A DNA stretch of 64,000 nucleotides from Trichodelitschia bisporula. Its lineage: Eukaryota. The notes below the pieces were generated by a model. That model did no database searches, was not told the DNA's origin, and was given only the letters and a program-made list of their open reading frames with translations. Made by a program: the position numbers and the translations under genes. The stretch is taken from positions 1,116,001 through 1,180,000 of the forward strand of contig ML996688.1 in the NCBI GenBank assembly GCA_010356995.1, read 5' to 3'. Shown piece after piece: positions 54,888 to 60,175 of the stretch (within the stretch, counting starts at the first letter, position 1; every line of letters starts with the position of its first letter).

Positions 54888-56130
54888 CGAGACATTGGCG
54901 TTCAAGGAATGTGAGAGGTTGTGACGGAATTAAGGGGCGCGTCGAATTGCGCTTCGTATGAGAGTGTGAAAGTGTGAGAATTGGTGTTGTTGGGGTCAGA
55001 TGGCCACTTTCATGCGCGTGGACAAAGCGTGTTGCTCGCGGCGGTTACGTAGGGGCACGTGATAGGGGTTAGGGGTTCGCGCCATGTGCTCGGGAGACCC
55101 GATAAACTCGTAGCAGCCTTGCCTGGCCGTTTTTGCAGCTGGTGACGGCCATGCCATCTTACAAAGACCGTTGCGACGATATTTCGAGGTCCCCATTCGG
55201 ATATCAAAAGCTTCAAGCACCAACTGCCAATTATGGATATACTTTTCAAAAGTATTTAGATAAGCCGTGATTCTGGCATTCCTTGGCATTGGGCATCATC
55301 AGCCTGGCAGATACATGTAAGGTTATGCCACGTCAAACCTCAGCCTCATCAGCCTGCCAAATATATGTAGTGCCACACCAGACCTCAACCCCACCGAACA
55401 CCACTTTCCTCCTCCCAAAACCTCACCACGAATCGCCCCAAATCGGTGCGACGCCTCCACCCGGGCTCAGTTCCGTGCCATAAAGTCTTCTCGTATAGCC
55501 GGTGCGGAATTCTCCTTCCGAAATGCCATCTTTGTCGCCTTAAGCTCAAATCAGTACGACATTGCCACGCGGGCTCAGATCATTACCATGAGGGTTATGG
55601 GCCTTTCGGAAGCCTAAATCAGCCAAGAAACGGGTGTCCCGAAAGCCGCAGTTGGGACTATCTGTCGAACGGCTCGTGCTCGGGGGTTTGACCCTCACGC
55701 CACTCCATTTCGCGTTAGGGACGAACATGTGTCCGATTCTCCAAAGTCCGGCCAGTCACCAAAAGACGAGAACAAGGACACCGACGAAGACGCCTGGGAA
55801 GACGGCTCCGAGCCAGCTAAGACTTCTCGGAGACGTCGCGCCTAGCGCCTCAGACGGCGACATCGTTAACACATGACACGACTCGAAGGGTGACGAAATC
55901 TTAGGCAAAGCAGGTAGCAGCTTTGGGCGCTAGATGTCAAAAACATGCTGGATGGAGTGAAGCGGCTAGAGGATGCGAGAGGGGAGGTGAAGGGGCGGGA
56001 TGAGATGGCTGTGAAGCGCATACTGGGGATGGTGAGGGATAAAGGGGGCGCGGGGGAGATTGAGGCGAGATAGTTACGGTACTTCTGGACCACGTCCTTC
56101 CCATCATTACCAAATACGAATACACGATTC

Positions 56131-57060
56131 CTAAATCCTAGCCTTGCCCTCCACCGTCCCCAAATACCCATACTTCGTCGGATTATCCCTAGCCCACTCC
56201 CAATCATGCGCCAGCACAACCTCAACCTCATCCGCCAGCTTCCGTATCCTCCCCAAATGCTCCTCCGCCAACTCCTTATCAATATGCGCGTTCCTGATGA
56301 CCCCCGTCTCGGGATCACGGTACACGCTCGTCTCGCACTGCCCGCACAGAATCCGCACATCATGGCACGAGTCCCCGCCTAGCAGCACCCATTTCTCCCT
56401 CTCCACTCGCACCAGCAGGTTCACATGCCCAGGTAAGTGTCCCGGCGCATTAACAACGTATACGCTCCCGTCGCCGAACCAGTCCCTCGCCGCGGGGAAC
56501 GGCCCCAGGGGGGACCAGAAACTCCCATCCGTGCCGGGGGGCAGTTCAGTCGTGCGCTCGCGCGGCAGCAGATTCGAATCAAAATGGCTGTTTGGGTCCG
56601 CCGGATAACTCGCCGGGCCCGTAATCAAGCCCAGCGCCCCAGGCCCAACCACATACTTCGTCCGCGGCCCAAACCCGCGCGGAAAGCCAATATGATCGTA
56701 ATGCAGGTGCGAGAATATAACCGTGTCGATATCGGTCGCTGGATCTAGGCCCGCGCGCTGAAGCCCGTCGAACACGTCTTCCCTAACCTCGACTTTGGCG
56801 ACGGTGGTGATGCGCTTTTGGATCGCGGGCGTGTAGCAAGTTGGGTCTTTAGGGATTCCCAGGTCGAAGATGAGGCGTGTGCCGCTGGGCGGGTGCGTGA
56901 TGAGCCAGGACATGGAGGGGCAGACGTTGATTTCGTTTTTCGGGGCGCCAGACACGAAGAGCCAAGCTCGGAGGTGAATATCGCCTGCGGGGAGGCGGCG
57001 GAGGTTTATTGTGGGTTGAGAAGGGGAAGCGGCCGGGAGGGGAGGGTTGGTTGGCGCCAT
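56131..57060 (-). CDS. Metallo-beta-lactamase-fold lactonase/lactamase (AHL-lactonase AttM/AiiA-like)
   Basis: FDLG, SHLHYDHIG (HxHxDH), DWFGDGS, PGHLPGH, GGDSCH, LAHD; intronless. Confidence 0.88.
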   Translation of the reverse strand: MAPTNPPLPAASPSQPTINLRRLPAGDIHLRAWLFVSGAPKNEINVCPSMSWLITHPPSGTRLIFDLGIPKDPTCYTPAIQKRITTVAKVEVREDVFDGLQRAGLDPATDIDTVIFSHLHYDHIGFPRGFGPRTKYVVGPGALGLITGPASYPADPNSHFDSNLLPRERTTELPPGTDGSFWSPLGPFPAARDWFGDGSVYVVNAPGHLPGHVNLLVRVEREKWVLLGGDSCHDVRILCGQCETSVYRDPETGVIRNAHIDKELAEEHLGRIRKLADEVEVVLAHDWEWARDNPTKYGYLGTVEGKARI

Positions 57061-57427
57061 GGTGAACGGAGTCAAAAAGTCGCGATGAAGAGAGCTTCCA
57101 CCAAATGTCGATATTCACGAAGCCTCAATATTCTGCCTGAAGCTGTATGTGGTACTGGCATCCGCAAGAGCTCATCAATATATAACTGGCCATACCTGCG
57201 GGGAAGCTGCAGAGCCCTGCAGTTTGCCTTACTCGTCCCGGAAATAGTCGCAGGGTAGCTTTGGCGACGCAGCGACCCCGCCTTCATGGATGTGGCAGCT
57301 CCGGCCTCGGGATCCATGGTCGCGATTAGGCCGAGTACGGCTGGAGACGCATAAATATTCGTCATTATTAGTACGAAAGAACGGAAACCAGATCCGGACC
57401 CTAAAATTCAACCACTGTCTTAACGCC

Positions 57428-59035
57428 ATGGCAGAGAACTTCATCAAAAAGAGCATTCCTTACACAGTATGCATGCGCGAGTATCCGGACAGATGTGTAC
57501 TGAGGACTCCAGTTCAAAGATCCCTCCCTCCTCGACCACCGGTCCTTTATCGGTGGAAAATGGGTCGAGGCTTCTTCAGGAAAGACCTTTCCTGTCTATG
57601 GTAATCAGCACTTCCCAATCCCTCACACCTACTCACGCCCCCAGATCCCACCGACGACCAAGTTGCCTTCTCCGTCGCCGACCTCTCCCGCGACGACACC
57701 CGAGCCGCCGTTGAAGCCGCGCACGCAGCCTTCCTAACCTACCGCCACACACCCCCCCGCACCCGCCGCGCCCTCCTCAACAAATGGGCCTCCCTAATCC
57801 GCGCCTCAACCGACGACCTAGCCGCAATCTGCACTCTCGAGCTCGGCAAGCCCTTCACCGAGTCCATCGTGACCGTAAACTACGGTCTCAGCTTCCTAGA
57901 CTGGTTCGAAGGCGGCATCGAGCGGCTAGGCGGCGAAACCATCCCCGCAGCCCGCGGTGACAACCGCATCGTCACGATCCGGCAGCCGCAGGGCGTGGTG
58001 GCTGCTATCACGCCATGGAACTCGCCCATCGCGATGATTACGCGCAAGGTGGGCGCTGCAATTGCGGCGGGGAATACGGTGGTGTGCAAGCCGGCGCCCG
58101 AGACGCCGCTGTGCGCTATCGCTTTGGCGAAACTGTTCGAGCGCGCTGGATACCCACCCGGCGTGTTCAATGTGGTCACTGGTTCGGCGGAGTCGACGCC
58201 GGGGATCGGGGCTGAGCTGTGTGAGAACCGGTTGGTGCGGCATTTGAGCTTCACAGGGTCGACGCCGATTGGGAAGTTCCTGAACACTGAGTGCGCCAAA
58301 ACGATGAAGCGGATAAGCATGGAACTCGGGGGCAATGCGCCGTTTCTCATCTTTGAGGACGCTGATATACCCAAGGCTGTGGAGGGGCTGATCACGAGCA
58401 AGTGGCGCTCGTCGGGGCAGACGTGTGTTTGCGCGAACCGCATCTTGGTTCATGAGTCCATTATCGACCAGTTCAAGAGCCAGCTACAAAAGCGACTAGG
58501 TGAAGTGCTCGTTCCCGGCTCGGTTTGGGACCGAAAGACAAACTTTGGGCCTCTGTACTCCGGAAAAGCTGTCGAAAAGGTAAAGAGGCATCTGGAAGAC
58601 GCAACTAGCAATGGCGCCGAGCTTATAACAGGTGGACTCCCAGCTCCCGATGAGGAAGGGGGACCGAACTTCATTCCACCAACTCTGCTTGTTCAGCCAC
58701 CAGGCTCCGTCGAGTGGGATGCACTGGCATTCTCTAAAGAAGAGACTTTTGGGCCTCTGGCTACACTCCTACCTTTCAAGGATGAGAAGGAAGCCATCGA
58801 GTACGCAAACAGGACGGAGGCGGGACTAGCAGCGTACTTGTACACCAATGATATTGGCCGTATGTGGCGCGTAGCTGAAGCTCTAGAAGCGGGTATGGTG
58901 GGCGTCCGCGTTGGGCTGGTCAGTGCCTGCGAGATGCCCTTTGGCGGAATCAAGGAGAGCGGTATCGGACGTGAAGGCGGGGGTCACTGCCTTGAGGAGT
59001 ATACCGAAGTGAAAGCCATCACTTTTGGTCTGTGA
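57428..59035 (+). CDS. Succinate-semialdehyde dehydrogenase-like ALDH
   Basis: ITPWNSPIAMITRK, KPAPETP, FTGST, MELGGNAP, SGQTCVCANR, EETFGP, PFGGIKESGIGREG; two 5' introns. Confidence 0.9.
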
Positions 59036-59354
59036 TCTGCTAGGTGGAACTAGTTGCCGAATTCTGTTCCGTAATTAGCTCAAGGGCAATGCCAGACACA
59101 TGGGTGTCAAATCCTGAGCTCGAATGCCGCGCATCCAACACCGTATGCGGAAGGCGTTCACCTTGGCAGTCTGTTTGATAGACCACTCGGGATAGAGTCA
59201 TCCGTCGGATTAGGGCTGGACCCAGTTGATGCTGGTCCTGTGAGCTTGACGGCATCCGGCCCAAGCCCCTCGGGCGGATGACCCCGCACGCGGGGGGGCT
59301 TAAGAGCTCAAGCAAGTTGGTTCTGTTGCTGCCCCAAAACACATCGTTCACACC

Positions 59355-60175
59355 ATGGGTCGTCTTCAAGGAAAGGTTGCCATTGTCACCGGCGGAGGGT
59401 CTGGGTTCGGGGAGGGCATCGCCAAAGCATTCGCCAAAGAGGGCGCCAATGTAATCATAGCCGATATCGCAGTGGAGGGCGGCAAGCGTGTCGAAAGCGA
59501 GATCGAGGCTGAGAAGGTCCAAGGCGGAGGCTCAGCAGTATTCCTCGAATTCGACTGCACGAAGCGCGAGGCATGGGAGAAGGGCCTCGAAGTCGCCAAA
59601 GAGAAGTTCGGAAAGCTGGACATCGTGGTCAACAATGCGGGGACAACCTACCGGAAAAAGCCGAGCATAGAAGTCACAGATGCCGAGTTCGACAAGATCC
59701 TCAACGTCAACATCAAAAGCATCTACCTCAGCGTCTCGGTCGTGATGCCTTACTTCGTGGAGCGCAAGTACGGCGTTTACTTGAACACGTCCTCCGTGGC
59801 CGGAACTCGCGTGCGGCCGGGACAGGTATTCTACGGAGGCACGAAAGGCTTCCTCAACACTGTCAGCATAACTTCCTCCAATTGAACAGCACTAATCTTG
59901 GACAGGTCACACAGGGCCTGGCAGCTGAGTACGGCCCAGATGGCGTCCGCGTCAACTCTATCTGCCCGCTCCGCGGGGCAACTGGGCTCCTGGAGATGTT
60001 TTCTGGGGTGCCCGACACGCCCGAAGAGCGTGCTCGCTTTGCGCAGAGCGTGCCTCTCCGAAGAATGTCGTTTCCAGAAGATATCGCAGCGGCAGCCATC
60101 TATCTCGCAAGCGACGAGGCGGCGTTCGTGTCTGGTGTCAATTTGCCCGTGGATGGCGGTCGCTTGACGGTTTAA
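59355..60175 (+). CDS. Classical SDR (FabG/TsaC-like)
   Basis: TGGGSGFG, NNAG, YGGTK, VNSICP, VSGVNLPVDGG; one intron near 59863-59905. Confidence 0.9.

Follow-up and report, generated by a model that had tools for sequence, protein, structure and literature searches.

Which compound would a fungus degrade with a lactonase-type hydrolase and two dehydrogenases encoded side by side? The question is raised by a locus of the dothideomycete Trichodelitschia bisporula, located in a stretch of 64,000 nucleotides of contig ML996688.1 (positions 1,116,001 to 1,180,000, assembly GCA_010356995.1), here called the window. Three enzyme genes fill its positions 56131-60175: a metallo-beta-lactamase (MBL)-fold hydrolase on the minus strand and, on the plus strand, a paralogue of succinic semialdehyde dehydrogenase (SSADH) with a short-chain dehydrogenase/reductase (SDR) downstream of it in tandem. 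An earlier note on this DNA had described a gene of the acyl-homoserine lactone (AHL) lactonase type diverging over about 370 bp from an SSADH-like gene that is followed by an SDR. This arrangement is confirmed, with 367 bp between the two start codons (57061..57427), a region that would act as a shared promoter.

Conservation of the gene cluster in fungi

Homologue searches with each of the three proteins gave the best 99-120 matches, so misses among them are not absences, and gene order was inferred from consecutive gene or accession numbers. The earlier note had named absence of linkage in any other genome as one outcome that would refute it; the genes proved to be widely linked. The full trio was found in four species, namely Tothia fuscella (KAF2434645/46/47), Uncinocarpus reesii (UREG_01845/46/48), Coccidioides posadasii (D8B26_003967/68/70) and C. 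immitis (TPX21292/93/95), and pairs of the genes are linked in 15 further species. More specifically, the MBL and SSADH genes lie 2-3 numbers apart, with no SDR linkage seen, in Penicillium paradoxum, Aspergillus bertholletiae and four Trichoderma species, and the SSADH and SDR genes lie 1-2 numbers apart in Bogoriella, Bathelium, Rhizodiscina, Eremomyces, Aulographum, Rhinocladiella, Cladophialophora chaetospira, Xylogone and Venustampulla. The linked species span Dothideomycetes, Eurotiomycetes, Sordariomycetes and Leotiomycetes; class placement was checked for five of them and is presumed for the others.

Co-occurrence on contigs of equal size was used as a rough control for linkage, with adjacency confirmed by accession numbers. 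Among close-clade MBL matches on contigs of at least 5 kb, 14/30 share an equal-sized contig with an SDR or SSADH match, versus 1/48 of the distant MBL matches, and in that single case the two genes are 141 accessions apart. This difference, together with the adjacent accessions, excludes chance adjacency. Sharing of an equal-sized contig with an SSADH match was also found for 12 of 66 SDR matches.

A metagenomic contig (L035) carries matches to the SSADH (77%) and the SDR (72%) in tandem and a divergent match to the MBL (52%) located 4.5 kb away. It is the only close-clade locus among 77 metagenomic MBL loci, the other 76 being distant (best segment 34-45%) and without cluster-type partners. 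On this contig, a HET-domain gene and a phosphatase-like fragment are found between the SSADH and the MBL (L035:5500-10900), and the MBL is frameshifted through either assembly error or decay. A ketopantoate-reductase-like gene beside the L035 SDR was considered as a cluster member and rejected, because in T. bisporula about 690 kb of the contig separate its orthologue from the trio.

Taken together, the trio is a real and conserved fungal gene cluster, probably catabolic and apparently undescribed, with the SSADH and SDR as its putative core and the lactonase as a frequent third member. No description of the cluster was found in the open-licence literature, subscription journals and supplements lying outside the search, and its locus tags are absent from the main texts of open-licence papers (supplements not covered).

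Family assignment and active-site residues

The MBL gene (56131..57060, minus strand, no intron) encodes 309 residues with a PF00753 domain. Its best sequence match in the PDB is 4-pyridoxolactonase (E 7e-11), and its solved relatives at E ≤ 0.001 (11 sequences) are 4-pyridoxolactonase and AHL lactonases. The predicted model (predicted local distance difference test, pLDDT, 94) has AiiA, AhlX and 4-pyridoxolactonase as top fold matches, with template modelling (TM) scores by query of about 0.62-0.67 against AiiA and AhlX. Both the AHL-lactonase fold and the HxHxDH~H~D~H di-metal motif are present, and the set of metal ligands is complete: H118, H120, D122, H123, H208 and D230 are kept in 45/45 clade members and H285 in 43/45. 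The protein scores far under the curated cut-offs for AttM (55.4 bits with profile NF045700, cut-off 390), AiiA, AidB and 4-pyridoxolactonase. Additionally, all 45 clade members carry His233 where the aligned 4-pyridoxolactonase and AhlX carry Tyr; we take this Tyr, three residues past the bridging Asp, to be the catalytic residue of AHL lactonases. No hydrophobic N-terminus or signal peptide is present.

In the MBL tree, a clade of 45 of the 120 sequences (support 0.999) contains every linked copy. Two unlinked paralogues in the same genome show 33-36% identity, distant members of the family bear the source names mpaDE and andK, and the best plasmid tblastn matches, from 2 records, are 31-32% identical. 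The C-terminal extension ends with a weak peroxisomal-signal-like tripeptide (window 56134-56142), not shared by 46 close relatives.

The SSADH-family aldehyde dehydrogenase (ALDH) paralogue (57428..59035, plus strand, 505 aa, two introns) has E. coli GabD as its closest PDB structure (E 1e-138), the other close ones being SSADHs as well; its third exon alone reaches 546 bits with TIGR01780 (cut-off 646). Residues R176, R297, S469, C303 and E269 are kept and align with E. coli R164, R282, S445, C288 and E254, of which R164, R282 and S445 bind succinic semialdehyde (SSA) according to the available text of PMC2823781. This conservation suggests a carboxylated semialdehyde as substrate and points to a short diacid as the probable product.

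The paralogue is nevertheless set apart from ordinary SSADHs of the γ-aminobutyrate (GABA) shunt (UGA2/GabD type), as it neither groups with GabD-like enzymes nor has their PWNFP motif. In a 66-sequence tree it falls, with the linked SSADHs of other fungi, in a separate clade of 46 members (support 0.96), a share inflated by gathering the members with this protein as query; the comparators come partly from a search of 50% representatives. Ser169 stands for the conserved Phe of the motif (E. coli F157), with PWNSP in 46/46 clade members and PWNFP in 16/16 GabD-like comparators. A separate housekeeping SSADH, for which the earlier note had proposed a check, is represented by three GabD-like enzymes in the same genome (L002, L009, L010), all with PWNFP and all outside the clade. 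The paralogue is not the sister of a Sinorhizobium blcA-like protein either.

Two further sequences show variation in or next to this clade. P0248, sister to the clade, has PWNSP with Lys and Asn replacing both substrate arginines, which would mean a further changed specificity. In Sporothrix bragantina, the gene model of P0483 has a β-hydroxyacid dehydrogenase part (PF03446/PF14833) joined to an SSADH of the clade. It reflects either a true fusion or two neighbours, and hints that one sub-clade may use a dehydrogenase of a third type.

The third gene (59355..60175, plus strand, one intron) encodes a 258-aa classical SDR of the NAD type, a putative member of the PRK07231/TsaC subfamily. Each exon taken by itself matches NF005559 best, at 179.5 and 107.3 bits (cut-off 215 for the whole protein), and TsaC (8SY8) is the best PDB match (profile E 2e-74). 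The NAD-type Asp37 and the tetrad N119, S147, Y160 and K164 are present. Arg154 sits at the position of TsaC Gly149 and Val148 at that of Thr143, the TsaC numbering being inferred from a 20-residue tag offset. Both residues occur in 27/27 fungal SDR sequences, and Arg154 also in all 15 proteobacterial relatives aligned, so the aromatic gate Thr143/Gly149 of TsaC is not present in the fungal enzymes. As described in the available text of PMC10579966, TsaC converts a hydroxymethyl acid into the aldehyde on which an ALDH then acts, and Gly149 at its gate confers a preference for aromatic substrates. In the SDR tree, the fungal sequences join two paralogues from the T. bisporula genome (support 1.0, weak root), and a scan of prokaryotic genomes with the fungal SDR alignment gave 3 weak loci, the patterns being fungal-specific.

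Proposed pathway and substrate

We consider it probable that the cluster converts a lactone to a 4-hydroxy acid, then to a semialdehyde and finally to a dicarboxylate. In such a route, the di-zinc MBL would open the lactone ring, the NAD-dependent SDR would hold the 4-hydroxy acid by its carboxylate through Arg154 and oxidise its primary alcohol to give the semialdehyde, and the SSADH paralogue would yield a substituted succinate (methylsuccinate, itaconate, malate, tartrate or dimethylmalate) that enters central metabolism. The best explanation of the locus, which we hold tentatively at a little less than an even chance, is that the three enzymes act inside the cell to catabolise or detoxify a small γ-lactone whose C4 backbone bears a methyl, methylene, hydroxy or gem-dimethyl substituent. 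Examples of such substrates would be α- or β-methyl-γ-butyrolactone, tulipalin A or B, pantolactone and tetronolactones. The data show the genes, their splicing and linkage, their families and their residues; from these we infer the reactions, their order and the substrate.

Plain γ-butyrolactone (GBL) is probably not the main substrate. A substituted butyrolactone is favoured by the Phe-to-Ser swap, by the presence in the genome of ordinary SSADHs and an unlinked iron-containing alcohol dehydrogenase (Fe-ADH), and by the bacterial contexts described below. Two PF00465 (Fe-ADH) genes are found, both on other contigs, and such an enzyme together with the unlinked GabD-like SSADHs could serve plain 4-hydroxybutyrate. 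No PF03446, PF03328, PF02515 or PF00465 gene is present on the window's contig. One of the two Fe-ADHs (L151:754-2508, contig C19) is a single-exon gene with an N-terminal extension, and we take it to resemble hydroxyacid-oxoacid transhydrogenase (HOT).

The earlier note was right on the unit, most likely right on the outline of its chemistry, and probably too narrow on the substrate: of its proposed γ-lactone assimilation unit, the lactone-to-diacid outline stands as the most likely, and plain GBL is less supported, given the Phe-to-Ser swap and the methylsuccinate-type bacterial contexts.

Comparison with known systems

The γ-butyrolactone operon blcABC (attKLM) of Agrobacterium, which follows a lactone-to-diacid logic (PMC5924552, available text), is the natural reference. 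The trio shares with it an MBL-fold lactonase, a hydroxy-acid dehydrogenase and an SSADH-family enzyme, and the same proposed logic. It differs in having an SDR where the operon has the Fe-ADH BlcB, a lactonase of a fungal clade (55 bits versus 390 for AttM, His for Tyr) and a fungal SSADH paralogue with the Phe-to-Ser swap, and in being spliced, eukaryotic and divergent in layout, with no linked regulator seen; blcABC is induced by SSA or γ-hydroxybutyrate through BlcR. Of the defining features of blcABC, only the SSADH-family enzyme is found; the AttM-family lactonase and the Fe-ADH are both missing, and the trees show no bacterial operon transfer, so the trio is best regarded as a putative analogue of blcABC and not as a member. 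The suggestion that an SDR takes the place of BlcB in a unit assembled independently of blcABC is supported.

Other systems resemble the trio in part. TsaC, the best solved SDR relative, also works ahead of an ALDH in the Comamonas TsaC/TsaD pair, but there the substrates are aromatic, a Rieske oxygenase acts upstream, Gly149 replaces the fungal Arg154 and no lactonase is present. AsPLa, Fusarium MBL1 and MpaE-like domains, as described in the available texts, have the same fold and HxHxDH~H~D~H motif as the trio MBL, and none is reported there with an SSADH and an SDR. The Fusarium FDB lactamase clusters for benzoxazolinones are known (PMC5610705, PMC10512309, available text); neither in the window nor in L035 does the trio have the amidase, dienelactone hydrolase or NAT1 of FDB1/FDB2 as a neighbour. 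A 2-hydroxyparaconate lactonase outside the MBL fold is also known (PMC9875883, available text).

The comparison extends to vitamin degradation. Pantothenate and pantoate are degraded by pantothenase, pantoate 4-dehydrogenase, aldopantoate dehydrogenase and dimethylmalate dehydrogenase. As in our proposal, a substituted 4-hydroxybutyrate is oxidised via a semialdehyde. An Ensifer canadensis plasmid (L146:9001-19378) carries an ALDH, an SDR of this family, a peptide-type ABC transporter, an amidase and a LeuB-type dehydrogenase, a layout that presumably corresponds to this classical route. The Ensifer SDR is, however, only 40% identical, and the trio has a lactonase and lacks a linked amidase or decarboxylating dehydrogenase.

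Bacterial relatives and origin of the cluster

Searches of plasmids with the SDR gave 53 records at E ≤ 1e-50, of which 11 regions were read. Their SDRs are 44-52% identical to the fungal one, and in 8/11 regions the SDR is adjoined by one orthologous ALDH. Four regions (Acinetobacter, Shinella, Chelatococcus and Palleronia) hold 3-5 genes resembling those of the itaconate/methylsuccinate cluster, whose functions (Ict, Ich, Ccl, Mcd, Msi) are given in the available text of PMC12290011. On the plasmid of Chelatococcus sp. CO-6, an ALDH-SDR-MBL lactonase module stands inside a complete five-gene methylsuccinate/itaconate cluster (L116:5488-9680 and L120:7169-12732, with an AidB-like MBL and an ABC transporter). 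This locus is a candidate for an undescribed bacterial lactone-to-methylsuccinate pathway, and the addition of an ALDH-SDR(-MBL) module to the cluster is not described in the available text of PMC12290011. The Chelatococcus module and the trio share the putative SDR subfamily (47% identity), an adjacent ALDH and an MBL lactonase, but differ in ALDH subfamily (31%) and in MBL (24%), and the fungal trio is without linked coenzyme A (CoA)-pathway genes.

In eight further regions centred on the ALDH, an SDR stands beside it in 4, one of which also has the amidase and the LeuB-type gene of the pantoate-like layout, and threonate genes are found in 1. The remaining three (L143, L145 and L148, on Skermanella, Ancylobacter and Caballeronia plasmids) combine the ALDH with a TRAP transporter, a zinc dehydrogenase, a CoA transferase and a CoA-ester lyase, and there the zinc enzyme apparently replaces the SDR. 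Three regions were centred on relatives of the Chelatococcus lactonase; one of them, on plasmid pC of Sinorhizobium meliloti (L118:6658-10469), has the blc layout of Fe-ADH, AidB-like MBL and SSADH.

The earlier note had also suggested a phylogeny for bacterial origin. Recent transfer of a bacterial operon was considered and is unsupported: the fungal SDRs join paralogues from the T. bisporula genome, and the MBL and SSADH fall in fungal clades, all with small bacterial sampling. Given the low identity of the bacterial ALDH (31-34%) and MBL (24%), and the grouping of the fungal SDRs with fungal paralogues, the trio was most likely assembled within fungi and not imported as an operon, although single bacterial genes may have been transferred long ago.

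A wider but rather doubtful possibility is that fungi and proteobacteria each built an undescribed pathway around the same SDR subfamily, with different lactonases and ALDHs, taking a common natural branched butyrolactone or 4-hydroxy acid to methylsuccinate or itaconate. If true, the C5 diacids that the widespread methylsuccinate cluster breaks down would have an aerobic origin in nature, and the trio would represent the first form of the pathway known from a eukaryote.

Weighing of the alternatives

Several observations weigh against a conserved module for a substituted γ-lactone. Among the matches listed, the homologues from Helicocarpus, Fonsecaea erecta, Scytalidium and Emmonsiellopsis show no linkage, and neither does the Trichoderma SDR, although paralogues may have been compared in these cases; one or two additional genes are often found inside the cluster, between SSADH and SDR or near the MBL, as gaps in gene numbers. 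CoA-transferase III and HpcH/HpaI lyase genes occur in the genome away from the trio. In bacteria, a lactonase accompanies the SDR in only 1/11 regions and occurs in 0/8 of the ALDH-centred ones, the partner ALDH belongs to a different subfamily, and the contexts vary (methylsuccinate-type, amidase with LeuB-type dehydrogenase, tetronate, TRAP-only), so they fix no single substrate. Furthermore, the meaning of the Phe-to-Ser swap depends on the place of E. coli F157, which we assume to line the substrate channel; if so, the fungal pocket would be wider or more polar next to the aldehyde.

An exact equivalent of blcABC is a rival explanation, although a fairly unlikely one. It would take plain GBL or 4-hydroxybutyrate, possibly derived from tetrahydrofuran (THF) or 1,4-butanediol, to succinate, and its SDR might also oxidise 2-hydroxy-THF to the lactone. 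Growth of some ascomycetes on THF and GBL (PMC7464125, available text) and the intact SSA-binding residues fit this pathway, but the clade-wide Phe-to-Ser swap, the ordinary GabD-like SSADHs already in the genome and the branched-C5 diacid genes around bacterial SDR relatives do not. The Sinorhizobium set of Fe-ADH, MBL and SSADH, whose MBL is of the same family as in Chelatococcus, also speaks for it. So does P0483, in which a clade SSADH is joined to a β-hydroxyacid dehydrogenase, presumably of the family of SSA and γ-hydroxybutyrate (GHB) reductases. It is unlikely that the SDR-SSADH pair is the true unit, acting on a free hydroxy acid, and that the MBL is an accessory, for instance for aromatic phthalide-type lactones as in the MpaE-like branch. 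All linked MBLs belong to one clade, MBL and SSADH are linked in six species with no SDR seen linked, the contig control speaks against chance adjacency, and TsaC is inactive on 2-(hydroxymethyl)benzoate (PMC10579966, available text), with Arg as the gate of the fungal SDR. In favour of an accessory MBL are the nine named genomes in which SSADH and SDR are adjacent and no close-clade MBL was found alongside among the matches listed, the names mpaDE and andK of distant family members, and the remote, frameshifted MBL of L035.

It is equally improbable that the trio completes the breakdown of C5-C6 ω-lactones (δ-valerolactone, ε-caprolactone) that a Baeyer-Villiger monooxygenase has formed, with glutarate or adipate as the end product, as in Cpn/Chn. 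GabD-type enzymes accept glutarate semialdehyde, and a large metabolic cluster 20-50 kb away has a flavin monooxygenase, an esterase, an alcohol dehydrogenase (ADH) and an ALDH; this cluster, however, owns its esterase and ALDH and is separated from the trio by housekeeping genes, and no monooxygenase is seen linked to the trio in L035. The low activity of TsaC on 5-hydroxypentanoate also favours such a pathway (PMC10579966, available text). For a lactam or cyclic-imide route (2-pyrrolidone, 5-hydroxypyrrolidone/succinimide or benzoxazolinone-type rings), an alternative already raised in the earlier note, no evidence was found and the probability is low: neither the window nor L035 shows an amidase next to the trio, and no transaminase is seen linked. 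When the ring of pyrrolidone is opened the product is GABA, and its further conversion calls for a transaminase, not for an SDR. Fusarium MBL1 (FDB1) does act as a lactamase, and its model is similar to the AHL lactonase AiiB (PMC5610705, available text), but FDB1/FDB2 hold amidases, a dienelactone hydrolase and an NAT, and SSADH is not among their genes in the available text of PMC10512309. Very unlikely, finally, is interference as the selected function, by AHL quorum quenching or detoxification of patulin-type lactones. The MBL fold is closest to AHL lactonases and the fungal MBL lactonase AsPLa hydrolyses both AHLs and patulin (PMC13413597, available text), yet the conserved dehydrogenases would be left unexplained, the MBL scores far under the AttM, AiiA and AidB cut-offs, and the two unlinked paralogues could do the same job. 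Quorum quenching, the other purpose proposed earlier, is therefore weak, given two unneeded dehydrogenases, the missing signal peptide and His in place of the AHL-lactonase Tyr, and would be a side activity at most.

The substituted γ-lactone module, if correct, has several implications. Conserved fungal catabolic gene clusters are uncommon and usually mark an ecologically important compound, and the trio offers concrete candidate genes for the consumption of small lactones by fungi; for THF- and GBL-degrading fungi, the available text of PMC7464125 names metabolites and not genes. It would also provide a testable job for a large SDR group annotated just as 'glucose 1-dehydrogenase' or 'alcohol dehydrogenase', and an NAD-linked three-enzyme cascade from lactone to diacid with possible use in biocatalysis. 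The pathway might, in addition, supply methylsuccinate in nature; according to the available text of PMC12290011 (2025), no natural route to this compound had been known until itaconate reduction in the gut was discovered.

Gene models, flanking genes and the remainder of the window

The SSADH-like gene has exons at 57428-57466, 57513-57600 and 57645-59035 and introns at 57467-57512 and 57601-57644 (plus strand), and its 505-aa translation is identical to the deposited T. bisporula protein P0398. The SDR exons are 59355-59861 and 59906-60175, with an intron at 59862-59905 (plus strand). These GT..AG introns are absent from contigs of two sequencing runs of one sample (3/3 in run X1, 2/3 in run X2), both of which we can only guess to be RNA, and the MBL gene is covered by contigs of both; contig depth in these runs is uninformative on co-expression or co-regulation. 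Upstream motifs common with L035 are not above chance on the SSADH side, where 155/300 null runs reach the observed count, and are weak on the SDR side (9/300 null runs), with the motif order not kept. No informative repeats were found, no regulator gene is adjacent to the trio in the window, and ESM Atlas searches added nothing beyond the family assignments.

A large metabolic cluster occupies window positions 2200-35900. It contains two PRISE-family genes, separate APH-kinase and acyl-CoA dehydrogenase genes, an esterase, a zinc ADH, a TRI12-type MFS transporter, an ALDH, an SDR, an AMP-binding ligase, a P450, a flavin monooxygenase and fungal transcription-factor domains; the APH and acyl-CoA dehydrogenase genes presumably represent an ACAD10/11-like split. 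The earlier note had placed this cluster about 20 kb from the trio, which holds for its near end, a transcription-factor gene at 33.3-35.8 kb, and not for its 4-hydroxy-acid-type ACAD/APH genes (2.3-6.3 kb), which are about 50 kb away. No evidence of a functional tie between the trio and this cluster was found.

The genes flanking the trio look like housekeeping genes, and we take them to be a Ted1-like phosphoesterase and a POP2/CAF1-like gene; Pfam gives no match for the Ted1-like gene and NCBIfam none for either. A short degenerate frame at 55400-55850, with no Pfam match, is 42% similar to a locus on contig C15 and presumably resembles a transposase helix-turn-helix. The contig that covers this frame also covers the MBL gene.

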